64,000 nucleotides of DNA from Minisyncoccota bacterium (GTDB lineage: Bacteria > Patescibacteriota > Minisyncoccia > Phycocordibacterales > Phycocordibacteraceae): positions 93,830 through 157,829 of the forward strand of contig JALHOO010000001.1 in assembly GCA_022842945.1 (NCBI GenBank), written 5' to 3'. A program made the position numbers and the translations under genes. The notes beneath the pieces are model-generated. The model was not told where the DNA came from. It did not search any database and saw only the letters and a list, made by a program, of their open reading frames with translations. This document shows positions 27,941-44,735 of the stretch, one piece after another (positions within the stretch are counted from its first letter, which is position 1; every line of letters starts with the position of its first letter).

Positions 27941-29644
27941 ATGGATACCGTTGAACAGATAAAGGCGAAGCTCTCTATCCTTGAGGTAGTAGCACCCTAC
28001 GTGAAGCTCACGAAGTCAGGTCGCAACTATAAGGGGCTCTCTCCCTTCAATAAGGAGAAGACCCCATCGTTCTACGTGAACGTTGAGCGCGGTACCTACT
28101 ACTGCTTCTCCTCAAGCCAAGGCGGAGACCAGTTCCAGTTCATACAGCAGATGGAGGGCGTGGATTTCAAGGGAGCGCTCAAGATCCTCGCTGAGAAAGC
28201 AGGGGTTGAGATTGTGTATCAAGGGAGTGGCGAGTCAAAAGCAGACAAGGACAAGCGAGATCGTTTGTACGAAGCTATGGCGCGTGCAGAGGCGCTCTAC
28301 GCAGAAGCGCTTCTGCAAGGAAAGGGTATAGAGGGAAGTGCGTACTCCTACGCACTCTCCCGCGGGCTCACAGAGGAAACCATAAAGACCTGGAACCTCG
28401 GCTACGCACCTGATGCATGGCGCACGGTACTTGAGTCTCTCATGTCTGCCGGCTTTACGAATGCAGAACTGGTCCAGGCTGGACTCGTTAAGGAAGCGGA
28501 CGAGAAGAAGGGCACCTGGTACGACCGGTTCCGGAACCGCCTCATGTTCCCGATACGCGATTCGGCCGGACGCACCGTTGCCTTTACGGGTCGCGCTCTA
28601 GACTCTGCGGATCTCGCGAAGTATCTCAACTCTCCAGAGACTGACCTGTACAAGAAGTCAGAGATTCTCTTTGGCATGGACAAGGCGAAGGATGCGATAC
28701 GTCAGAGAGGATTCGCACTTCTTGTTGAGGGACAGATGGATCTTTTGCATTTGCATCAGATAGGGTTCCAGAATACCGTTGCGCTCTCCGGTACTGCGCT
28801 TACGCCCCAGCACCTTTCCTTAATGAAGCGGTACGCAGACAACGTGATGCTTGCGCTCGACTCAGACCGTGCGGGCCTTAACGCATCTATGAAGAGCGCC
28901 ATAGCGGCTCTTCGGGCTGGCATGCGTGTGAAGGCAGTACACCTTCCGCCAGGGAAGGATCCGGCAGACCTCGCTCTTGAGGACCCCAAGGGTTTAACTA
29001 CTCGCATCAAGGACGCTACGCCTATCGTTGAGTTCTTCCTGTCGGTGCTCGCAGAGAACGAGAAGGACTCGCACCGTCTCGTTATCCTCGTTGAGAAGAC
29101 CGTCCTTCCGCTCATAAGTGCCATACAGAGCCCAATGGAGCAGGAGCATTTCGTAGGAGTTGCTGCACGTTCTCTTGGATCAACCCCCGAAGCTATCCGG
29201 GCTGGACTTAACCGCCTTCCAAAGGAAGGGCAGGCGGAGAGGGCTCCTGAGACACCCTTTAAGCCTCAAGTGCGGGTTGAGGTACCCCTTAAAGCCAGCG
29301 AGCGGCACGAGCTTAATTTGAGGGCTGTAGCGGCCTGTTATGCGGGCTCTTCCCTTGCGGCACGGCTTGAAAGTGAGTATAATCGCATTATCGGCGTACC
29401 GTTCCCGGATGTGCCCCCTCCCGAAGACATGATCTTCGAGGCAGGAATAGCTTTTGGCGAGGCCCCCGGAGAAACAGACGCGGACGATCTCATCGTCGCA
29501 TTCGAGAAGGCACTTTTAGCGGAGCAGCTCCAGGCTGCTACCGCTCGCTTGCGCGTTGCAGAGGCGTCCCGCGACGAGACCTCAATCAAAGAGATAGGAC
29601 AGGAGTGCGAAGAACTCCGCAAGAAACTCGCTACCTTTTCATAG
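27941..29644 (+). CDS. dnaG: DNA primase
   Basis: Zinc-ribbon region (CFSSSQGGD), TOPRIM domain (EGQMDLL...DSDRAG) and dnaG-rpoD synteny. Confidence 0.93.
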   Translation: MDTVEQIKAKLSILEVVAPYVKLTKSGRNYKGLSPFNKEKTPSFYVNVERGTYYCFSSSQGGDQFQFIQQMEGVDFKGALKILAEKAGVEIVYQGSGESKADKDKRDRLYEAMARAEALYAEALLQGKGIEGSAYSYALSRGLTEETIKTWNLGYAPDAWRTVLESLMSAGFTNAELVQAGLVKEADEKKGTWYDRFRNRLMFPIRDSAGRTVAFTGRALDSADLAKYLNSPETDLYKKSEILFGMDKAKDAIRQRGFALLVEGQMDLLHLHQIGFQNTVALSGTALTPQHLSLMKRYADNVMLALDSDRAGLNASMKSAIAALRAGMRVKAVHLPPGKDPADLALEDPKGLTTRIKDATPIVEFFLSVLAENEKDSHRLVILVEKTVLPLISAIQSPMEQEHFVGVAARSLGSTPEAIRAGLNRLPKEGQAERAPETPFKPQVRVEVPLKASERHELNLRAVAACYAGSSLAARLESEYNRIIGVPFPDVPPPEDMIFEAGIAFGEAPGETDADDLIVAFEKALLAEQLQAATARLRVAEASRDETSIKEIGQECEELRKKLATFS

Positions 29645-29659
29645 CATTCGATTACTCGT

Positions 29660-30961
29660 TTGAACTCTACTCACATGGCAACCTCAAAGAAGCCAGCCAA
29701 GAAGGCTGTTGTTAAAAAAGCAGTGAAGAAGGCCGCCCCAAAGAAGGTGGTTAAAAAGGCTGTGAAGAAAGTCGCAAAGAAAGCCGCACCTAAGAAGGTG
29801 GTGAAGAAAGTGGCTGCCGCTAAGAAGCCTGCAAAGAAGGTGCTTCTTAAGAACATTGTGCGTGTTGCGGCAACGGGTGCTAAGGCGAAAGCTGCTGCAC
29901 AGAAGATGGACAAGGGCGACATGCTCATCCAGAAGGGAAAGGAGCGCGGATACATCACCTACTCTGAGATCCTTAAGGAGTTCCCGCATGTTGAGGACGA
30001 CATCATGTTCCTCGACGAGCTCTACGAGAAGTTCACCACCGCAGGCATCGACATTCTTGAGGGGGGTATGCTCGCAGACGATACGGACCAGTACCTGGCC
30101 ACCCGCAACATAAAGAGTCGTGACTCTGGTGCATACGACTCCATCCAGATCTACCTTCGCGAGATTGGACAGTACCCGCTTCTAACAGCGTCTGAAGAGC
30201 GCGAGCTCGCCCAGCGCATTGAGCGCGGGGACGACGAAGCGCGCAACATTCTTGCTCGCTCGAACCTTCGTCTCGTTGTGTCTATTGCAAAGAAGTACGT
30301 AGGACGCTCTCCGGACCTAACCCTCCTCGACCTTATCCAGGAAGGAAACCTTGGTCTCTTCAAGGCCGTAGACAAGTTCGACTGGAACAAGGGATTTAAG
30401 TTCTCAACCTACGCTACGTGGTGGATTCGCCAGGCTATAACCCGCGCGCTCGCAGACCAGTCTCGTACCATCCGCATCCCGGTGCACATGGTTGAAACTA
30501 TCGCGAAGTACAAGCAGGTATCCCGCCGCCTCGCTCAGGTGCTCGGACGCGATCCGCAGCCTGAGGAGATAGCTATTGAGATGGGTGTGGAGGTAGACAA
30601 GATCTACCAGATTGAGAAGATCAATCAGGACACGCTCTCTCTTGAGAATCCTATTGGTTCCGATGACGACCAGAACTCAACGCTCGGCGACTTCATCGCG
30701 GACGACAAGATTCCTTCTCCAATCCAGGAGTCTTCGGAGCGTATTCTTGGAGAGCAGGTGCGCGACATTCTTGAAGACCTCTCTCCAAAGGAGCGCAAGA
30801 TTCTTGAGATGCGCCATGGACTCCTAGACGGTGTGTACCACACGCTTGAAGAGGTTGGGAAGGAGTTTGGGGTTACGCGTGAGCGTATCCGCCAGATTGA
30901 GGCGAAGGCGCTTGAGAAGATCAGGACGCATGAGAAGAGTAGGAGGTTGAAGTCCTATTAA
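29660..30961 (+). CDS. rpoD: RNA polymerase sigma-70 factor with a Lys/Ala-rich (histone H1-like) N-terminal repeat region
   Basis: Regions 1.2-4.2 are present (rpoD box [13 protein letters not shown]). The first ~75 aa are [11 protein letters not shown] repeats. Confidence 0.93.
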
Positions 30962-30962
30962 A

Positions 30963-31436
30963 ATGACAGAGAAGGCAAAGAGTACAAAAGAGCTGGAGAA
31001 GACCGTTGATGACGGTGCTTCGATAACCAGTGATTTGCCTGCCGATAAGACAGTTAATAGGTCTAGCTTTTCAAGTTGGAGTCGTGCGATACCGCCTGCA
31101 GAGCTAAAAAAGCCGGACGTAGCTCGTGCGATAGCGAAGATGCTTCTCATGCTCAATGATGACCTTCAACGTGATCTTGAGAAGGCCCATCCATTTGAGG
31201 CTAAATTCTATGAGGCCGATAAGCGTACAGAAGTGCTCAAGGAGAGAATACGTGGCCTGCAAAAATCGGTCGGTGTAAAGGTACTATTCTCCTCTGCGGG
31301 CTTTGGCCTCGTGGGCTTTTCACCGTTCCTTTGGGACAAATATGTTCCACTATTTATACTGGCCATAGCTTTAGGAATCGTACTCATTGTCGTCGGTTAC
31401 TTCATAAAGGATATAAGTGACAAATTCGAAAAGTAA
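30963..31436 (+). CDS. hypothetical protein with C-terminal double TM helix (157 aa)
   Basis: Soluble charged N-terminal region, then VLFSSAGFGLVGFSPFLW...LFILAIALGIVLIVVGYFI. Confidence 0.5.
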   Translation: MTEKAKSTKELEKTVDDGASITSDLPADKTVNRSSFSSWSRAIPPAELKKPDVARAIAKMLLMLNDDLQRDLEKAHPFEAKFYEADKRTEVLKERIRGLQKSVGVKVLFSSAGFGLVGFSPFLWDKYVPLFILAIALGIVLIVVGYFIKDISDKFEK

Positions 31437-31440
31437 ATCT

Positions 31441-31824
31441 ATGCAGATTGAAATTAAGAAAATTGTAGATAGAGATCTCCTGGAGCAAGAAAGAGCAGTT
31501 CTTGGTGTAGTTTCTGATACTTTCTTAGGAAATTTTGCGATATTCCAAACTCACTCAAACTCATCCGGAACTGTATCAACACAGATAAAAAGAACATATT
31601 GGTTTCCAGATCGGGATGTGAAGGCTGGCGATATAATTGTTATTTATACTAAGTCTGGGAAGAATAAAGTGCGTGACAATGACGATGGTACTCAGTCACA
31701 TTTCTTCTATCTTGGAAAGGATGCGCCAATTTGGAAAGACGATTCCTCAGCACTGGCAATAATTAATATCCTTGAGTGGGACTATAAAACGGCTGATGGA
31801 AAAGGAGGGAGAGAAAAGATTTAG
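31441..31824 (+). CDS. hypothetical protein (127 aa)
   Basis: ATG 4 nt after the upstream stop; low-GC codon usage shared with the island. An alternative GTG start lies at 31417. Confidence 0.45.
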   Translation: MQIEIKKIVDRDLLEQERAVLGVVSDTFLGNFAIFQTHSNSSGTVSTQIKRTYWFPDRDVKAGDIIVIYTKSGKNKVRDNDDGTQSHFFYLGKDAPIWKDDSSALAIINILEWDYKTADGKGGREKI

Positions 31825-31964
31825 ACCACATGGGCTATTTTTAGATTGGTATAAGAAACTTGTTAGTCACCCTTAAATAAGGTGGTCGATCACGCCTGCA
31901 TGGACCTTGCGATCTAACTGAGCAAAATCTAAGCCTTAAATACTGTATATATTCTTACAGTCGG

Positions 31965-31985
31965 GAAGTGGGGTAGAATACTGTG
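31965..31985 (+). promoter_or_regulatory. extended -10-like element (TGgggTAGAAT) upstream of the MmeI-family gene
   Basis: AT-rich 200-nt gap; TGnTAGAAT about 45 nt upstream of the ATG at 32031. Confidence 0.3.
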
Positions 31986-32030
31986 ACAAAGACTTAGTAG
32001 GAATGCTGCCAAAAAGACCCCAAGAAATTT

Positions 32031-34709
32031 ATGATCAATCTAGTAAGCCTACAGGAGGATCTTGAGAATCTCAGTCAGAAATTTTCAAAGCAAACGTTTG
32101 TCTTTGATTTGCTGTCCGTGTATGGACTGCCGAAAAGCACCATCTCTTTACTTTTCAAAAACCCCTCAAAGCTATCGGGAAAGGAAGATCAGATCATTTT
32201 AAAAAACAAGGTGCTTTTTCACATAACCAACTTAGAAGAAGACGAGCACGTCGCTATCGATACTCTACAAAAGGATAAGAACTCATATAAATTCAATCCT
32301 CGATTCATTATCGTTACGGACTTTGCAACATTCTTGGCTGTAGATACAAAAACAAAGGAGACTCTTGATATCCAGATTGGGGATCTCGGCAGACATTACG
32401 CATTTTTCTTGCCGTGGTGTGGCATGGAAAAATCACAGCATGTTAATGAGAACCCTGCTGATATTCGTGCTGCCTACAAAATGGACAAGTTGTATCAGGC
32501 AATTGTTAATGACGATCCAGAATACTATAAGAACAATAGTCACGATTTAAACATATTTCTATCACGGCTTCTTTTCTGTTTCTTCGCCGAAGATACCGGA
32601 ATCTTCCCGAAAGCAGGATTATTCACAAACTCAGTAATTTCTCATACTCATGAAAATGGTGAAGAGTTAGATGCACATTTCTCAACGCTGTTTGATCTGT
32701 TGAACACAAAAGATAGCGACCGGTCAAAGTTTGCATCTCACTTTTTGGAATTCCCATATGTAAATGGGGGTCTTTTTGAAGACAAGATTAAGTTACCTGC
32801 ATTTACTGCTAGTTCACGAAAACTGATTATTGAGTGTGGAAAATTGAATTGGGATTCAATCAATCCTGACATCTTCGGGTCTATGATCCAGGCTGTCGTT
32901 CATCCTGGACAGCGAGAGAATCTCGGAATGCACTACACCTCTGTGCCTAACATAATGAAGGTGATTGAACCGCTCTTTCTTAATGATTTGTACGAAGAAT
33001 TAGAAAGGTCGAAAAATGATCCAAAGAAATTAGAAAATCTTCGTGACAGAGTTTCCAAGATCAAGATATTTGATCCAGCCTGTGGATCAGGTAATTTCCT
33101 CATTATCTCGTACAAGGAGTTATCAAAACTAGAATCAAAAATAGTTGCTTACGCCAAAGCCATTGGGCATGACATGGTGCAGTACTCTGGTGTATCTCTA
33201 AACTCTTTCTACGGAATAGAGATAGATGACTTTGCTCATGAAATTGCCAGACTTTCACTTTGGCTAGCTCAACACCAAATGAACCAGTATTTCGATGGAA
33301 TGTTTGGAATTATGAAAGCAACACTCCCGCTTAAAGAAAGCGGAAAGATTGTTTGTGGTAATGCCACGAGAGTCGATTGGGAGGAGGTCTGTCCTCGTAA
33401 AGATAAGGTTGTAGGAGAACATGAAATATATGTAATTGGTAATCCTCCTTACTACGGGGCAAGAAAGCAAGATGACGAACAGAAAGAAGATATCAATAGA
33501 ATTTTTAAGGGGGTCAAGAATGCGAGCAATCTGGATTATATTTCCTGCTGGTTTCTTCTTGGCAAGAACTATATTCAAGGCACAAAGATCAAGCTGGCTT
33601 TTGTTTCAACAAATTCAATTTGCCAGGGCGAGCAGGTCTCTATTCTATGGCCACTAATTTTAAAAGACCAAATCGAAATAGGTTTCGCGTACCAGTCATT
33701 TAAATGGAAGAACAGTGCCAAGGGTAATGCCGGAGTCACTTGCGTTATTGTTGGATTAAGAGCTGAAGCAAAAAATCATAAATATATTTTTAGTGGTCAA
33801 ATTAAGATTTCAGCCAAAAATATATCACCGTATCTTGTAGATACTGATAATCTTTTTGTGCAAAAAAGAAGTAAACCGCTATCACAGATTCCAGAGATGT
33901 GCTTTGGAAGTATGCCTAATGATGGTGGATATCTTTTGATTGACCAGAATGAGTATGTAGAACTTAAAAGTAATAATCCTACTGTTCTTAGTTTTATAAA
34001 ACGATGCTACGGTGGCCAGGAATTTATCAAGGGAATTGTCAGGTATTGTATTTGGATCAGTGATAAAGAAGTTGACAGTGCTATGAAGATTGAATTTATT
34101 AAAAATAGAGTCGAGCTAGTTCAATCATATCGAAGTAAGAGTGACAGGGAAGCAACTAGAAAATTGTCTGCAAAGCCTTACAAATTTGGTGAGATTAGAC
34201 ACCTTGATACCAATTCAATCATTGTTCCTCGAGTTTCGTCCGAATTGCGTGATTACATTCCTGTAGGTTTTCTGACCAAGAACGATATCATCACTGATTC
34301 TGCCCAGGTTATATATAACGCCGAGCCTTATATTTTTGCTGTACTAAATTCACACATGCACATGACCTGGGTGCGTGCTGTTGGAGGAAAATTGAAGACT
34401 GACTTGAGGTACTCGTCCGCACTTTGTTACAACACCTTCCCATTTCCAGAGATTACCCCAAAGCAAAAGGACTCGCTTGCTACTCATGTCTATAATATTC
34501 TCGAAGAGCGCGAGAAATATCCCAATAAAACGATGGCAGACCTGTATGATCCAGTAAAGATGCCGGATAGCTTGAGGGAAGCTCATAAATATTTAGACCT
34601 CGCCATAGACCAAATATATCGAAACAAACCCTTTGAAAGTGATGAAGATCGGTTGGCTCATTTGTTCAAATTCTACGAAGAGATGATTACTAGAGAAACC
34701 AACGGATAA
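32031..34709 (+). CDS. MmeI-family (Type IIL / ISP-like) N6-adenine DNA methyltransferase with C-terminal target-recognition domain and an N-terminal nuclease-like domain of uncertain activity
   Basis: Motif I FDPACGSGNFLI and motif IV NPPY (VIGNPPYYG). MmeI-family signatures RLLFCFFAEDTGIF, FPYVNGGLF, HYTSVPNIMKVIEPLF, FVSTNSICQGEQVSILWPLIL, RYSSALCYNTFPF and the ADLYDP..MP..L..AH..LD C-terminal helix. Confidence 0.85.
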   Translation: MINLVSLQEDLENLSQKFSKQTFVFDLLSVYGLPKSTISLLFKNPSKLSGKEDQIILKNKVLFHITNLEEDEHVAIDTLQKDKNSYKFNPRFIIVTDFATFLAVDTKTKETLDIQIGDLGRHYAFFLPWCGMEKSQHVNENPADIRAAYKMDKLYQAIVNDDPEYYKNNSHDLNIFLSRLLFCFFAEDTGIFPKAGLFTNSVISHTHENGEELDAHFSTLFDLLNTKDSDRSKFASHFLEFPYVNGGLFEDKIKLPAFTASSRKLIIECGKLNWDSINPDIFGSMIQAVVHPGQRENLGMHYTSVPNIMKVIEPLFLNDLYEELERSKNDPKKLENLRDRVSKIKIFDPACGSGNFLIISYKELSKLESKIVAYAKAIGHDMVQYSGVSLNSFYGIEIDDFAHEIARLSLWLAQHQMNQYFDGMFGIMKATLPLKESGKIVCGNATRVDWEEVCPRKDKVVGEHEIYVIGNPPYYGARKQDDEQKEDINRIFKGVKNASNLDYISCWFLLGKNYIQGTKIKLAFVSTNSICQGEQVSILWPLILKDQIEIGFAYQSFKWKNSAKGNAGVTCVIVGLRAEAKNHKYIFSGQIKISAKNISPYLVDTDNLFVQKRSKPLSQIPEMCFGSMPNDGGYLLIDQNEYVELKSNNPTVLSFIKRCYGGQEFIKGIVRYCIWISDKEVDSAMKIEFIKNRVELVQSYRSKSDREATRKLSAKPYKFGEIRHLDTNSIIVPRVSSELRDYIPVGFLTKNDIITDSAQVIYNAEPYIFAVLNSHMHMTWVRAVGGKLKTDLRYSSALCYNTFPFPEITPKQKDSLATHVYNILEEREKYPNKTMADLYDPVKMPDSLREAHKYLDLAIDQIYRNKPFESDEDRLAHLFKFYEEMITRETNG

Positions 34710-34713
34710 TTTT

Positions 34714-36651
34714 ATGAAAACCATTCAAGTCGCCGAAGCAACATACGAACAGACGGGGCAAAGTACCAAGCTTAACGAGCTTGGTATGCGTGAAATGCAA
34801 GCCAAAGCATTCGAAAAAAAGGGTGCTCAGTACCTACTTTTGAAAGCCCCTCCAGCATCTGGAAAGTCCAGAGCATTGATGTTCCTTGCTTTAGATAAAC
34901 TTGCCAATCAAGGCATCAAAAAAGTCATTGTTGCCGTTCCCGAGAGATCTATCGGTGGATCTTTTAGTGAGACCAATCTAACTGAGAGTGGTTTCTTTGC
35001 AGATTGGAAACCAAATGATGACTACAACCTTTGTACTCCTGGTCTAGATAATGCAAAAGGCAAGGTCGAAGCGTTTAAGAATTTTGTGAATAACGATGAG
35101 AAGATCCTCATCTGCACTCATTCAACGCTTCGCTTCGCATGTGAACAAATTGAAGACTCAAAATTCAATGATATGCTCATTGCGATTGACGAATTCCATC
35201 ATGTGTCTGCTGACAAAGAGAGCAGCATTTTAGGGCGCGTTTTGCACGGAATAATGACTAATTCAAACGCGCATATTATTGCGATGACAGGGTCATACTT
35301 CAGGGGAGATGGTGTTGCTGTTCTGTTGCCACAGGATGAGGCAAAGTTTCAGAAAGTGACATACAACTACTACCAGCAGTTGAATGGCTACACCTATTTA
35401 AAGACCCTAGGTATCGGGTACCATTTTTACCAAGGCAGATACACATCAGCGATTACTGAGGTGTTGGATACAAACAAGAAGACGATTCTACATATTCCGA
35501 ACGTGAACTCCGGGGAGTCCACAAAGGATAAGCTCAATGAAGTCGATCTGATCTTGGATATCATCGGAGAAGTAGATCATCAGGATCATGAGACTGGTGT
35601 TATCTATGTAAGACGTGACGGAGACGGAAAGATGCTTAAGGTCGCAAACCTTGTCGACGATTCAGTCGATCGAGACAAGATATCAAACTACCTCCGTACC
35701 ATGAAAAACGAGGATGATATGGATATCATCATTGCTTTGGGTATGGCAAAAGAAGGTTTTGACTGGCCGTACTGCGAACATGCACTGACTGTCGGCTATC
35801 GAAGCTCTCTCACAGAGATCATCCAGATCATCGGCCGCTGCACCCGTGATAGTGCTAACAAGACTCATGCTCAGTTTACAAACCTCATCGCCCAGCCTGA
35901 CGCAAAGGACGGTGAGGTTAAGGTGTCCGTAAACAACATGCTGAAGGCGATTACCTGCTCTCTACTTATGGAGCAAGTCATGGCCCCGCACTACAACTTC
36001 AAGCCTCGATTCCCCAATGACGACAATTCTTTTACTCCGGGCGAGATTAAAGTAAATGGATTTAAGGCACCAAGCACCGAACGGGTGAGAGAAATCATTG
36101 AATCAGATATCAACGATCTCAAGGCATCTATTCTTCAGGACGACCAAATGATTAAGGCGTTGCCTGGAAATGTTGATCCTGAGGTAATAAACAAGGTGAT
36201 GATCCCAAAGATTATCCAAATGAAGTATCCAGATCTTAGCGATCTTGAGGTTGAGGAAGTCCGCCAGCATGTCGTTGTTGACTCTGTAATTAAGAACGGA
36301 GAAATTAAGATTGTAGGAGACAAGAAGTTTGTCAGAATGGCGGGGCAGTTTGTGAATATCGACGATCTTAATATTGATCTCATTGATAGCATCAACCCCT
36401 TCCAGGAAGCCTTTGAAATACTTTCAAAATCCGTGACAACGGGCATCCTCAAGGTCATTCAGGACACAATCGACTCTTCCCGAATCGAGATGACACCAGA
36501 GGAAGTTAAGATTCTATGGCCTAAGGCAAAAGAGTTTACAATCCAGACAGGTCGGAAGCCTGAAGTTACTTCGTCCGATCCGCTTGAGAAAAGGCTAGCC
36601 GAAGCGGTGCTCTATCTGAAGAAACTCAAGGCCGAGCAAATCCAAAATTAA
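34714..36651 (+). CDS. SF2 DExH-box helicase (restriction Res/HsdR-like ATPase core, no nuclease domain)
   Basis: Motif I APPASGKS, motif II DEFH, motif III TGS, motif VI QIIGRCTR. Located 4 nt after the methyltransferase stop. Confidence 0.8.
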   Translation: MKTIQVAEATYEQTGQSTKLNELGMREMQAKAFEKKGAQYLLLKAPPASGKSRALMFLALDKLANQGIKKVIVAVPERSIGGSFSETNLTESGFFADWKPNDDYNLCTPGLDNAKGKVEAFKNFVNNDEKILICTHSTLRFACEQIEDSKFNDMLIAIDEFHHVSADKESSILGRVLHGIMTNSNAHIIAMTGSYFRGDGVAVLLPQDEAKFQKVTYNYYQQLNGYTYLKTLGIGYHFYQGRYTSAITEVLDTNKKTILHIPNVNSGESTKDKLNEVDLILDIIGEVDHQDHETGVIYVRRDGDGKMLKVANLVDDSVDRDKISNYLRTMKNEDDMDIIIALGMAKEGFDWPYCEHALTVGYRSSLTEIIQIIGRCTRDSANKTHAQFTNLIAQPDAKDGEVKVSVNNMLKAITCSLLMEQVMAPHYNFKPRFPNDDNSFTPGEIKVNGFKAPSTERVREIIESDINDLKASILQDDQMIKALPGNVDPEVINKVMIPKIIQMKYPDLSDLEVEEVRQHVVVDSVIKNGEIKIVGDKKFVRMAGQFVNIDDLNIDLIDSINPFQEAFEILSKSVTTGILKVIQDTIDSSRIEMTPEEVKILWPKAKEFTIQTGRKPEVTSSDPLEKRLAEAVLYLKKLKAEQIQN

Positions 36652-36652
36652 T

Positions 36653-37801
36653 ATGGATAGAAACGATTTACTAGATTTGCTAAATGATGACGACCTAGGA
36701 CTTCTCGATATAGAGAAGAAGTCTGTTTCCGTTACGCCAGATGATCGGCTATCAGAATCATTTATGGAAATAAATGAGTTTTTCTTGGCGCATAATAACG
36801 AACCAAAGAGTGGCGGAGATATCCATGAACACAAGCTTGCATCAAGACTTAAGCACATCAGAGAGAATAAAGAGCAAAGAGACTTCCTCAGTAAATACGA
36901 TACTCATAGTCTATTGAAGACTGATGCAAAGGATCTCGATACCGTAAGTGATATTTTTGCAGACGACGATTTGGATCTCCTTTCGCTTGAGGATAGTTCT
37001 GTTTTTAACATAAAGAACGTTCCAGAAATCAGACAAGATCGCTCCAACCCCGACTTCGTTGCACAGAGAGAGATTTGTACTGATTTCGATAAGTATGAGT
37101 ATCTGTTTGCACAGGTTCAAAGGGACCTAAAGAGCGGAACAAAGAAGCTGGCTAGCTTTGTTGAAAGTGAGATGAAAGAAGGCGACTTTTTTGTACTTAG
37201 TGGAGTGCTCATATATCTCGAAAAAATTGATGATCCATACCGAGGTAACAGTCAAAAAATAAACAGGCGAACTCGTTGTATTTATGAGAACGGGACTGAA
37301 TCAAGCGTGCTTCTTCGATCGCTTGGGAAAAGACTTTCTGATGCAGGGTATGCCATAAAGGGTAATTCAGAGATGGTGGCTATTGAAGATGGAGATTCTG
37401 AGACAGGCTATATCTATGTACTTAAGTCCCTAAGTGAGAATCCAAGGATCGCAACTACTAAAAACCTTTTCAAGATTGGTTTCTCAACTACTCGTGTCGA
37501 AGAGCGTATAAGGAACGCAGAACAGGACCCTACGTATCTAATGGCTCCAGTTTCTATTGTCGCTACTTACCGATGTTTCAACATGAATCCTCAGCGGTTC
37601 GAAAGGCTGATACACCGTTTCTTCAGTGAGTCATGTCTGGATCTTGAAATCACCGACAAGGATGGGAGAAGTTATGTTCCAAAGGAGTGGTTCGTAGCAC
37701 CAATAACGGTAATCGGAAATACCATCGAACTAATCATCAAGGGAGAGATCGTCAATTATTCTTATGACAAAGATACTGAGTCAATTGAAAAGATTAGATA
37801 A
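36653..37801 (+). CDS. protein with an acidic N-terminal tandem motif and a C-terminal T5orf172/GIY-YIG-superfamily nuclease-like domain
   Basis: GYIYVLKS...KIGFSTTRVEERIRN...ERLIHRFF...EWFVAP matches the T5orf172 (MUG113) pattern. DDDLGLLDIEKKSVSV and DDDLDLLSLEDSSVFN repeats. Begins 1 nt after the helicase stop. Confidence 0.7.
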   Translation: MDRNDLLDLLNDDDLGLLDIEKKSVSVTPDDRLSESFMEINEFFLAHNNEPKSGGDIHEHKLASRLKHIRENKEQRDFLSKYDTHSLLKTDAKDLDTVSDIFADDDLDLLSLEDSSVFNIKNVPEIRQDRSNPDFVAQREICTDFDKYEYLFAQVQRDLKSGTKKLASFVESEMKEGDFFVLSGVLIYLEKIDDPYRGNSQKINRRTRCIYENGTESSVLLRSLGKRLSDAGYAIKGNSEMVAIEDGDSETGYIYVLKSLSENPRIATTKNLFKIGFSTTRVEERIRNAEQDPTYLMAPVSIVATYRCFNMNPQRFERLIHRFFSESCLDLEITDKDGRSYVPKEWFVAPITVIGNTIELIIKGEIVNYSYDKDTESIEKIR

Positions 37802-37809
37802 TACTTCTC

Positions 37810-38259
37810 TCAAATAGGATTCACAATTTTATTGAAATGCCTAGACGGCACTGGTGTAACCGAAAGCCTCGACCCTTTTTGTAAAATCATCATCCCTAAA
37901 GAAGCATCGGCACGTATATCCGATAGGGTAACGGGCACATCAAACTTCTTTACGAACGCAATATCAACCAAGTCCCATATTGGCCTTGCTTCAGTTGCAC
38001 GCTTGTCGTAGTAGTCGCTCTTCGGATCAAACTGCGTTGGGTCTGGATACGCTTCCGTAACAACCTTTGCAATCCCATACACTCCAGGAACCTTGCAGTT
38101 GGAATGATAGAAGAGAACCTCGTCGCCAACCCGCATCTCACGCATATAGTTCCTCGCTTGAAAGTTCCGCACGCCATTCCATGACGTCTTTCTATCCTTC
38201 TTTAAATGGTCTATCCCGTAGCTCTCGGGCTCTGACTTCATAAGCCAATACTGCTTCAT
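37810..38259 (-). CDS. EVE (PUA-like/YTH-like) domain protein
   Basis: MKQYWLMKSEPESY...WNGVRNFQARNYMREMRVGDEVLFYHS is the canonical EVE N-terminus. Confidence 0.8.
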   Translation of the reverse strand: MKQYWLMKSEPESYGIDHLKKDRKTSWNGVRNFQARNYMREMRVGDEVLFYHSNCKVPGVYGIAKVVTEAYPDPTQFDPKSDYYDKRATEARPIWDLVDIAFVKKFDVPVTLSDIRADASLGMMILQKGSRLSVTPVPSRHFNKIVNPI

Positions 38260-41900: not shown

Positions 41901-44735
41901 ATGAAGAACGACACGGCATTCAATACGAGCTACGCGATGCTCGACAGCGCTCAGAAGCTTGCCGTAGACACGGTAGAAGGACCAGTGCTGGTTATCGCGG
42001 GACCGGGCACCGGAAAGACCCACATCCTCACGCTCCGCATCGCAAACATCCTCAAGGAGACTCAGGCAAATGCCTCACAAATCCTCGTCCTCACGTTCAC
42101 CGAGTCAGCGGCGAGAACCGTCCGCCAGCGCCTCGGTACACTCATTGGCGAGAAGACCGCCCGCGAGGTATTCATATCAACCTTCCATGGCTTCGCAAAC
42201 CACATCCTTGAAGAGTACGCAGACTTCTTCCCAGAGTGGGCCGGGAAGCGCCAAGCAGGAGACGTGGAGGCAACGCTTCTCTGGAGAGAGGTGCTTGAGA
42301 ACGAGGAGCTCGTACACCTGCGTACCCCGAAGTCTCCATTCTTCTACCTACGCGATCTTGCACGCCTGCGGGACGAGCTCGCTCGCGAGCGCATAACTCT
42401 CGACGACTACCGCGCCTGGGCAAAGGAAGAAGAGGACCGCCAGCGCAACGACGAGTCTAACTACTACACCCGCGACTCAAAGTACGGAAAGAAGGGAGAC
42501 CTGAAGCCAGACGGCGCAAAGAAGATTGCGCGTCTCGAGAAGGTATACGAAGCCGCACGACTCATAGAAGCGTATGACCGCCTTAAAGACGAGCATGATC
42601 TCTACGACTTCACCGATGTGCTTCGAATCGTAACGGACAGACTCGCTACAGACGAGGCACTGCGCACTACGCTCCAAGAGCAGTACCAGTACGTGCTTGC
42701 AGACGAGCACCAGGACGCAAACGCTCTCCAGCATGCATTCCTCGACAGCCTCGCCTATGACGAGCACCCGAACCTGTTTGTTGTGGGGGATGAGAAGCAG
42801 GCTATATTCCGCTTCCAGGGAGCTGACTCCTCGCACTTCGGCGAGTTCCTTGAGAACTACCCACGCACCACCGTTGTTGAACTCAAGACAAGCTACCGTT
42901 CCCTAGGACCCATCCTTGAGGCCGCACACAGCTTAACCAGTGGCATTCCTACAAGTCGTGGGGAACATCAGACCCTTTCGGCACACCGTGCTGAAGGAAC
43001 CGCACTCCTCAGTCTTCTGCCGGCAGAGGATCCACTCGCTGAGCGGGACCAGGTTAGCGGACTCGTTGAGACTGCTATTAAAGAAGGTGTACGTCCTGAA
43101 GAGATTGCTGTTATAGCTCGTACGAACGCAAACGCTGACGTGTTTGCGGATCATCTCGCCGCACGCAGTATCCCAACCCTTCGTGCAGGAGACGTGTCCC
43201 TCTCCTCGCGCCCTATAATCCGCTCGCTCCAGGCACTCATGCGTGCGGTTGCAGATCCTCTAGACGCGCCGTCTCTTCGAGAAAGCCTCCTTGCTCCGTG
43301 GTGGAGTGCGTCGCTTAAGGAACGGGCACAGTTCCTGCGTGAGACCAGGGACCGCGATCTTCAGACGCTTCTCAAGGAACGATTCCCAGAGATAGAGGAG
43401 GTGGTAGGTACTCTTCAAGAGTCTGTACAGAGACTCGCTCCTCTCGAACTCATATCAAAACTCCTCGAACTCTCAGGAGCGCGTAGCTTCCTTCTTTCGC
43501 ACAAGGAGCACCTCGACGACGTGCTTCTCATCCGTCGCCTCATCATGCACATCGAGGAGTTGGTGCGCCGCGACCCGAACGCCTCGTTCGCAACCGTTAT
43601 TCATGAGCTTAGGAAAGCGCAAGAGCATGGCCTTGAAAGCGTAAAGGCAAGCGTCCTCCAGAAGGAAGGTTTCGTTACGGTTATAACCGCACACAAAGCA
43701 AAGGGTATGGAGTTCGAGCGGGTGTTCCTCGTATCCGCTACAAGCCGCGAGTGGGAGAGCGGAGGACGCTCAGCAACCATACCGTCTCCGCTTGCGCAGA
43801 AGGCACAGGCAGAGGACGCCGTGAAGCTGTTCTATGTAGCGCTCACACGTGCAAAGAACGCCCTCACTATTTCATACGCGACACAGACCGGAGAAGGAAA
43901 GGACCTCTCTCCTTCATCTCTCATTCCAGACGGACTGAACGTTATCACACCAGACGTTGATCTGCTCCCACTCATGCACTCAACGGTAGACGCGTCAGAG
44001 CTGGTCCGCGACCTTACCCGCCACTACCTCACCCATGACGGTCTCTCTCCGTCTGCACTTAACGAGTATCTAGAATCGCCTGCAACCTTCTTCGCCAAGC
44101 GCGTGCTAAAGCTCAGAGAACCAGAAGTCCCGGCCCTAACTATAGGAACCGCCGTACATGCTGGTATCGCATCCTTCCTTGAAGAGAAGAACGAAGAGAA
44201 AGCGTTCCAGGTGCTCGATACAACCATGCGCCGTTCGCTTCTTCCAAGGAACTCAGCCTTTGATCGCATCACGGAACACGCCAGAGAGAGTCTTGCAGCA
44301 TACATTGCATATCGCACCGAGCCCGGAACACTTCTTGCTCCTTCCGCTATTGAGGAGGAATACGAGACCAAACGTGTTGTGAGTGGATGCACGGTACGCT
44401 TGAAGGGACAGATAGACGCCCTGTTTGAAACCTCTCTAGGTATCTGCATCGCCGACTTCAAGACCACGAGTGAGGTGAAGGCGGTAGACGAGAAGTATGT
44501 GCGCCAGCTCGCGTTCTACGACCTTCTGGTCCGCGAGAACGGCGGCAACCCCACAAACGCCGCTATCGTGCAGGTTGGTCCAGACGGTGTAAAAGACCAT
44601 GCCGTACCCCTAACGGAAGAGTCCCGTGCTGAACTCGTAGCGGTGCTCGACGAAGTATTAAACGAGCTTCTAAGCGGGAAGTGGAGAGAGGGAACCGCGG
44701 GAGAATACGACGATCTCCTCAAGCTCTTCGCATAA
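41901..44735 (+). CDS. UvrD/PcrA-family helicase fused to a C-terminal RecB-family PD-(D/E)xK nuclease domain (AddA-like, 944 aa)
   Basis: Walker A AGPGTGKTH and DEHQD motif II. C-terminal IDALFE...IADFKT...YVRQLAFY nuclease motifs. Confidence 0.85.
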   Translation: MKNDTAFNTSYAMLDSAQKLAVDTVEGPVLVIAGPGTGKTHILTLRIANILKETQANASQILVLTFTESAARTVRQRLGTLIGEKTAREVFISTFHGFANHILEEYADFFPEWAGKRQAGDVEATLLWREVLENEELVHLRTPKSPFFYLRDLARLRDELARERITLDDYRAWAKEEEDRQRNDESNYYTRDSKYGKKGDLKPDGAKKIARLEKVYEAARLIEAYDRLKDEHDLYDFTDVLRIVTDRLATDEALRTTLQEQYQYVLADEHQDANALQHAFLDSLAYDEHPNLFVVGDEKQAIFRFQGADSSHFGEFLENYPRTTVVELKTSYRSLGPILEAAHSLTSGIPTSRGEHQTLSAHRAEGTALLSLLPAEDPLAERDQVSGLVETAIKEGVRPEEIAVIARTNANADVFADHLAARSIPTLRAGDVSLSSRPIIRSLQALMRAVADPLDAPSLRESLLAPWWSASLKERAQFLRETRDRDLQTLLKERFPEIEEVVGTLQESVQRLAPLELISKLLELSGARSFLLSHKEHLDDVLLIRRLIMHIEELVRRDPNASFATVIHELRKAQEHGLESVKASVLQKEGFVTVITAHKAKGMEFERVFLVSATSREWESGGRSATIPSPLAQKAQAEDAVKLFYVALTRAKNALTISYATQTGEGKDLSPSSLIPDGLNVITPDVDLLPLMHSTVDASELVRDLTRHYLTHDGLSPSALNEYLESPATFFAKRVLKLREPEVPALTIGTAVHAGIASFLEEKNEEKAFQVLDTTMRRSLLPRNSAFDRITEHARESLAAYIAYRTEPGTLLAPSAIEEEYETKRVVSGCTVRLKGQIDALFETSLGICIADFKTTSEVKAVDEKYVRQLAFYDLLVRENGGNPTNAAIVQVGPDGVKDHAVPLTEESRAELVAVLDEVLNELLSGKWREGTAGEYDDLLKLFA

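Follow-up and report, generated by a model that had tools for sequence, protein, structure and literature searches.

The question raised by this locus is what a nuclease encoded immediately behind a helicase contributes to its neighbours, and what its N-terminal region does there. The gene (36653..37801, plus strand) lies in a 64,000-nucleotide stretch of a Minisyncoccota bacterium genome (GenBank assembly GCA_022842945.1, contig JALHOO010000001.1, positions 93,830 to 157,829), hereafter the window. It starts with ATG and encodes 382 amino acids (aa), arranged as a probable N-terminal adaptor region, a middle beta-barrel domain and a C-terminal T5orf172 nuclease domain. By its domains and gene order it is identified as the putative nuclease subunit of the previously described YeeA(DnmA)–YeeB–YeeC cluster, a known, mechanistically unsolved system that leaves the picture of existing kinds of defence system unchanged. 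A preliminary description of this DNA did not recognise the three genes as that cluster.

The YeeC-family gene is the last of a co-directional trio with spacers of 4 nucleotides (nt) between methyltransferase and helicase and 1 nt between helicase and YeeC. The first gene (32031..34709, plus strand) encodes an 892-aa YeeA/DnmA-type, MmeI-like N6-adenine methyltransferase with a target-recognition domain. The second (34714..36651 with its stop codon, plus strand) encodes a 645-aa YeeB-type superfamily 2 (SF2) helicase, the stop of which ends at 36651, placing the YeeC start at 36653, as first described. The helicase is the best conserved of the three proteins, with ResIII, DEAD and Helicase_C domains and intact GKS (residue 50), DEFH (159), TGS (192) and QIIGR (371) motifs. 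The methyltransferase carries five of the five MmeI Pfam domains, its S-adenosylmethionine-binding FDPACGSG (347) and catalytic NPPY (471) motifs are intact, and it aligns with the MmeI structure 5hr4 (E 3.5e-186), only over residues 89-886. Its first 100 residues have no match in the PDB and contain no ExK or PD-ExK motif; in 49 homologs this N-terminus is a conserved but different domain, with the consensus iiwKkKlfF at the position of the MmeI catalytic motif. The PD-ExK residues expected of a Type IIL/IIG endonuclease of the MmeI family (D70, E80 and K82 in MmeI) are therefore missing. PADLOC v2 labels the protein REase_MTase_IIG despite the missing motif, and it offers no model for the other two proteins, which match no named multi-gene system, YeeC being matched only to PDC-S57 (E 2.6e-5) and the helicase only weakly to PbeA/Cas3. 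Promoter and terminator scans returned fewer sites than in shuffled controls.

The C-terminal domain of YeeC (37400..37798, plus strand) is a putative nuclease domain of the T5orf172/MUG113 branch of the GIY-YIG clan, as had been proposed from the sequence alone. It matches the Pfam families T5orf172 (PF10544, E 4.1e-12, aa 252-360) and MUG113 (PF13455, E 1e-11), and the GxIY…KIG…R…H…EWF residues are conserved, with G252, Y255, K274, G276, R285, E317, H321, E345 and W346 invariant or at least 90% conserved among 80-127 homologs. The same degree of conservation applies to the GIY-YIG signature, composed of G252-Y253-I254-Y255, K274-I275-G276 and the catalytic residues R285 and E345; the catalytic Tyr, like this Arg and Glu, does not vary within the family. 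The C-terminal domain of the AlphaFold model also matches predicted viral T5orf172/GIY-YIG proteins in BFVD (E 9.3e-6 to 1e-3; best template modelling (TM) score 0.80). Searching the PDB with profiles built from the family alignments yielded no significant match. The T5orf172 domain of ICP1 Gp88, described as an origin-directed nuclease, has been reported to belong to the GIY-YIG superfamily and to retain the catalytic Arg and Glu (PMC8263062).

The gene order extends far beyond this genome. The YeeC family comprises 3063 proteins in a collection clustered at 90% (E ≤ 1e-5) and 1677 representatives at 50% clustering (E ≤ 1e-3), and the trio is widespread, with a YeeC homolog on 233 plasmids and confirmed relatives in at least 526 stretches of species-representative genomes, the hosts belonging to many phyla of bacteria and to some archaea. 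Synteny and loci were compared for the best 80 of these genome relatives, which derive from Patescibacteria, Bacteroidota, Proteobacteria, Firmicutes, Spirochaetes, Chlamydiae, Verrucomicrobia and two methanogenic archaea. At nearly all loci with enough upstream DNA (about 80 genomes) YeeC directly follows a helicase gene, which is itself preceded by the methyltransferase gene; across loci the helicase is 59-96% identical, the methyltransferase 46-76% and YeeC 41-87%. The 50,697 phage records searched yielded no full-length YeeC-like protein.

This arrangement corresponds to one already in the literature. MmeI homologs without a PD-ExK motif, such as Bacillus subtilis YeeA, were reported to occur 'invariably' with a DEAD helicase (YeeB) and with a GIY-YIG protein (YeeC) at their flanks; Morgan et al. 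(2009) proposed that the three act together and that the YeeABC group is a link to Type I systems (PMC2731913). YeeA was later renamed DnmA and the synteny confirmed (PMC9973331). The present locus shows what characterises the YeeC family, a T5orf172/GIY-YIG domain at the C-terminus of a product some 380 aa long, encoded directly downstream of a helicase and an MmeI homolog devoid of its nuclease motif, and the B. subtilis dnmA(yeeA)–yeeB–yeeC and Vibrio crassostreae yeeAB loci have the same gene order ending in such a protein. The host differs from both, the closest YeeC relatives here (81-89% identity) being mostly Patescibacteria metagenome bins. The nearest proxy for B. subtilis YeeC is a 'GIY-YIG nuclease family protein' from a Bacillus sp. 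plasmid, with 43% identity over 94% of the query.

The trio (~31000-37900) forms an island of 38-45% GC between flanks of 52-56%, positioned between dnaG-rpoD and a convergent EVE-domain gene, and horizontal acquisition as a low-GC island is proposed here. The B. subtilis cluster is likewise a horizontally acquired low-GC island. No tRNA gene is present in the whole window.

The N-terminal region of YeeC contains a repeated motif. The preliminary description had reported two copies of an acidic DDDLxLLxxE motif, DDDLGLLDIEKKSVSV at aa 12-27 and a second at aa 105-120; the first position holds, and the second copy, DDDLDLLSLEDSSVFN, lies one residue earlier, at aa 104-119. Within the query the two share 7/10 and 9/16 identities, and in 300 composition-preserving shuffles 7/10 was reached three times and 9/16 never. 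BLASTP, for which the repeat is too short, left the motifs unaligned when the two N-terminal halves were compared. In 127 aligned full-length homologs, with 34-70% identity to the query, both copies are retained, so that the lack of conservation which would have refuted the preliminary description is not observed. The alignment establishes the repeat as real and changes its definition: the core is ΦΦxxDxΦGΦL (Φ, hydrophobic) rather than the DDD run, and there are three copies rather than two.

Copy 1 (36668..36706, plus strand; aa 6-18, LLDLLNDDDLGLL) has the consensus LxxΦΦxxDxΦGΦL and consists of a helix (3-11) followed by an extended segment; its family pattern is L-x-x-[IL]-[FLI]-x-x-D13-x-[LF]-G16-[LI]-L18, with D13 in 102 sequences, G16 in 92 and L18 in 97. 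Copy 2 (36944..36982, plus strand; aa 98-110, VSDIFADDDLDLL), located in the linker that joins the N-terminal module to the middle domain, follows [LIV]-[DE]-[DE]-[IL]-[LF]-x-x-D105-x-[LF]-G108-[LI]-L110 (D105 in 101, G108 in 73 and L110 in 97). The cryptic copy 3 (36887..36916, plus strand; aa 79-88, LSKYDTHSLL; consensus LxxYDxΦ[GN]LL) follows L79-x-x-[YF]-D83-x-[HYF]-[GN]-L87-L88, where the query has DTHSLL and many relatives have DKYGLL or DEFGLL. D83 is present in 127 of 127 sequences, L87 in 109 and L88 in 117, so that D83 belongs to a set of only four residues that are invariant across the family. The acidic positions beside the conserved Asp (12, 14, 104 and 106) are variable, 12 and 14 being acidic in about half of the sequences. 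A loose form of the motif, D.[LFIMVY][GND][LIVM][LF], has a frequency of 1.05 per 100 aa within the N-terminal 125 aa, compared with 0.003 in the rest of the protein and 0.022 in shuffled N-termini, an enrichment of about 47-fold over the shuffled sequence. The archaeal loci, from Methanosarcinaceae and Methanococcoides (loci L049 and L078), retain all three copies.

Between copies 1 and 3 lies a module that YeeC has in common with its helicase neighbour. The YeeC helix-loop-helix (36761..36865, plus strand; aa 37-71, FMEINEFF…EP…EHKLASRLKHIRE) is homologous to the C-terminal tail of the helicase (36517..36624, plus strand; helicase aa 602-637, WPKAKEFTIQTGRKPEVTSSDPLEKRLAEAVLYLKK), the two having in common the pattern F-x4-GRxP-x8-E-x2-LA. 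Profile-profile comparison by hhalign, with 72 helicase tails set against the aligned YeeC N-termini, gave a probability of 88-89%, E of 2-3e-6 and a score of 38.5 over 35 columns, against a maximum of 18.7 in 60 column-shuffled controls and 11.9 for a reversed alignment. P51 of this module is invariant in the YeeC family and E59 nearly so. The module was not found in the methyltransferase. Weak Pfam PMBR matches occur in 18 of 80 family members (best E 7.9e-5), one of them located at the FxxxxGRxP hairpin, and were not taken as a family assignment. No mention of the N-terminal motifs or of the helicase-shared module was found in the searchable literature, in which this architecture therefore appears to be undescribed.

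Structure prediction separates the three motifs from one another. An AlphaFold2 model of full-length YeeC, built with the 127-sequence alignment, has a mean predicted local distance difference test (pLDDT) of 91.6 and a predicted TM score (pTM) of 0.55. It comprises helix 3-11 with the extended motif 1 (pLDDT about 85), three helices that form a core at 29-82 (94-97, values that include the helix-loop-helix) and run into motif 3 at its end, residues 90-130 as a linker (64-80) with helix 98-103 and motif 2, the middle domain at 146-240 and a C-terminal α/β domain (~97). Motif 3 lies beside the three-helix core with pLDDT about 95. When the N-terminal 132 aa are modelled alone, pLDDT is ~76 at motif 1, 84-90 in the core and 61-70 around motif 2, which is the sole copy in a low-confidence linker (61-72 across both models). 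The N-terminal model has no fold match in the PDB. The confident modelling of motifs 1 and 3 against the helical core suggests that they are parts of a folded module and not free linear peptides, so that the earlier suggestion that the motifs could be docking peptides for the helicase or methyltransferase is only partly supported; motif 2, in the flexible linker, is proposed as the best candidate for such a peptide.

With moderate confidence, YeeC is read as the nuclease subunit of an MmeI-derived, helicase-dependent, restriction-modification-like trio that was acquired horizontally, with its N-terminal 125 aa as an adaptor to its partners. In the order of events that we infer, the MmeI-like subunit, having lost its PD-ExK nuclease, would read an asymmetric site and mark host DNA, probably on a single strand by analogy with MmeI. 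On unmodified DNA the SF2 helicase and YeeC would become engaged, with ATP-dependent processing and cutting by the C-terminal T5orf172 (GIY-YIG) domain. The N-terminal adaptor, in which the helix-loop-helix at aa 37-71 is flanked by three helix-capped DxΦGΦL motifs, would tether the nuclease to the helicase. The helix-loop-helix common to both proteins suggests homotypic pairing of helicase tail with nuclease head as one option, motifs 1 and 3 forming part of the folded module and motif 2 possibly docking from the linker. A homotypic helix-loop-helix pair recruits the nuclease in UvrB–UvrC. More tentatively, the N-terminus may be an assembly code, in which pairing of helicase tail and nuclease head in the UvrB–UvrC style would be combined with up to three DxΦGΦL peptides contacting the helicase and/or the N-terminal domain of the methyltransferase, and cleavage would be licensed only in the full complex.

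Several observations weigh against this assignment of function. The B. subtilis cluster gave neither restriction nor phage protection, and YeeA by itself displayed no endonuclease activity (PMC9973331; PMC2731913). The loose regular expression finds no copy of the motif in 27 of the 127 homologs, and monomer pLDDT values of 76-95 for motifs 1 and 3 fit an intramolecular structural role as well as docking. A Foldseek search of the full model against solved structures returned no GIY-YIG enzyme in the top 50 matches, and the fold assignment consequently rests on Pfam, on the invariant Y255, K274, G276, R285 and E345, and on predicted structures. In favour of the assignment, yeeAB mediates resistance to one phage group, the P1b_red phages, in V. 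crassostreae (bioRxiv 10.1101/2021.05.05.442762). The activity of the trio is disputed, being protective in Vibrio and silent in B. subtilis, and no description of how the three proteins assemble or cut DNA was found in the searched literature. The triple motif, the invariant D83 and the module in common with the helicase tail add new detail, providing mutational targets for the recruitment and restraint of the nuclease.

The same N-terminal features could be purely structural, the DxΦGΦL motifs acting as a helix C-cap and hydrophobic staple on the three-helix core and the N-terminal 125 aa forming one folded domain, perhaps DNA-binding or regulatory, with no docking peptides. This is a serious rival, though the less probable reading. 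It would account for the fact that each copy directly follows a helix (H3-11, H73-82 and H98-103), for the conserved Gly and paired Leu, which are typical of capping or packing elements, for the pLDDT of motif 3 and motif 1 (the latter lower in the N-terminus alone) and for the presence of D83 among the invariant residues. Against it stand the position of motif 2 in the least confident stretch of both models, a pTM of only 0.50-0.55, an N-terminal model that has no structural relative in the PDB, and the possibility that short amphipathic segments reach a high monomer pLDDT because they co-evolve with a partner.

Two further explanations are both very improbable. DLGLL superficially resembles clamp-binding pentapeptides such as QLGLF, and recruitment of a host replication or repair factor by a beta-clamp-binding variant (QLxLF), or by an acidic tip like that of the single-stranded DNA-binding protein (SSB), would target the nuclease to replication forks; the preferential localisation of B. 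subtilis DnmA near the replisome (PMC9973331) would fit this. The position equivalent to Gln is however Asp in 101-127 of the 127 sequences, the motif lies away from the C-terminus, where an SSB tip has to be, and the three motifs also occur on broad-host plasmids and in the two archaeal loci, whose hosts have PCNA and no beta clamp. The persistence of the motifs in bacteria, archaea and plasmids means that any motif partner must travel with the system, which argues against host factors such as the β-clamp, and both the beta-clamp (QL[SD]LF / QLxLxL) and SSB-tip readings were rejected on the Asp in place of Gln and on the archaeal loci. Alternatively, the acidic stretches could be DNA mimics that auto-inhibit the nuclease or helicase until an unmodified site is met. 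Each copy has net negative charge around it ([DE][DE] at aa 7-8 and 99-100, D/E following the motif), and the free nuclease has to be kept in check in some way; conservation is nevertheless highest at positions that are hydrophobic (Φ, Gly and Leu-Leu) plus a single Asp, and the DDD run is variable, position 14 being D in 30, P in 29 and E in 27 of the homologs.

Comparison with characterised systems places the trio among several relatives. The methyltransferase has the helical spacer, methyltransferase, target-recognition and C-terminal domains in common with MmeI (Type IIL/IIG, PDB 5hr4), but where MmeI has its N-terminal PD-ExK nuclease (PMC2731913) it carries a conserved domain of unrelated type, cleavage presumably having been delegated to the helicase and the GIY-YIG protein as separate partners. 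Enzymes of Type I and Type ISP (HsdR; LlaGI/LlaBIII) likewise combine a gamma-class adenine methyltransferase and target-recognition unit with an SF2 motor and a nuclease, whereas here the nuclease is GIY-YIG instead of PD-(D/E)XK or Mrr and the three activities reside on separate polypeptides. The comparison with UvrB–UvrC is one of analogy only: there, as here, the C-terminal helix-loop-helix of an SF2-type ATPase has a homologous counterpart in the GIY-YIG nuclease that accompanies it, but Pfam searches at E up to 10 matched nothing in the helicase tail or the YeeC helical core, the UVR domain included, and the nuclease domain is C-terminal in YeeC and N-terminal in UvrC. Phage T5orf172 nucleases (ICP1 Gp88/Odn and homing-endonuclease-like genes) have the C-terminal T5orf172 fold in common with YeeC and differ from it in their N-terminal targeting domains.

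The middle domain (37088..37372, plus strand; aa 146-240) consists of one helix and a small beta-barrel resembling domain I of eIF5A/EF-P (SH3/KOW-like). The best Foldseek matches of the full model in the PDB are eIF5A/EF-P proteins (E 7.5e-3; 5wxk_B with TM score 0.60 and root-mean-square deviation 2.6 over 53 columns), which map to this barrel, and there is a weak profile match to 1bkb. In close relatives the N- and C-terminal thirds of YeeC are 67-89% identical and the middle (aa 125-249, 37025-37399) is 28-42% identical in 13 of 23, a mosaic pattern that suggests cassette-like replacement of the SH3/KOW-like domain.

Variant forms of YeeC occur at other loci. On the Morganella morganii plasmid pDZa (L086, 6941-8146) the homolog is annotated as two in-frame open reading frames (ORFs), one for an N-terminal module of 95 aa and the other for a GIY-YIG protein of 304 aa, with an IS4-family transposase between methyltransferase and helicase, and similar two-piece annotations are found on Acinetobacter plasmids. 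A 208-aa YeeC remnant in Patescibacteria (L013:7079-7705), 80% identical, retains the middle and nuclease domains without the N-terminal region, and no helicase or methyltransferase lies near it. Some homologs (P0126 and P0266) carry a C-terminal fusion to ASCH, which is PUA-like, and at two loci an ASCH ORF lies just downstream (L034:8177-8485 and L064:3119-3424).

In the window the gene following YeeC encodes an EVE-domain protein, also PUA-like (37810-38259, minus strand), which is convergent and ends 8 nt past the YeeC stop; it was rejected as a fourth component, as no EVE gene adjoins YeeC at the 80 other genome loci. Upstream of the trio, at the edge of the GC drop, two overlapping ORFs (30963-31436 and 31417-31824, plus strand) encode 157 and 135 aa, the first ending in a hydrophobic, possibly membrane-spanning stretch. 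Neither has a match in Pfam, NCBIfam or PADLOC or a counterpart in the 80 related loci, and they were rejected as members of the system on account of that absence. Farther downstream, a 944-aa UvrD-helicase with a C-terminal PD-(D/E)XK nuclease (41901-44735, plus strand) strongly matches the GajB models of PADLOC (E 4.9e-64). PADLOC also matches the housekeeping genes rpoD (29660-30961, plus strand) to MzaA (E 2.6e-59) through sigma-70 domains and dnaG (27941-29644, plus strand) to RT_UG29 (E 9.9e-42) through its primase domain, matches by common domains that would be false positives in automated defence annotation.

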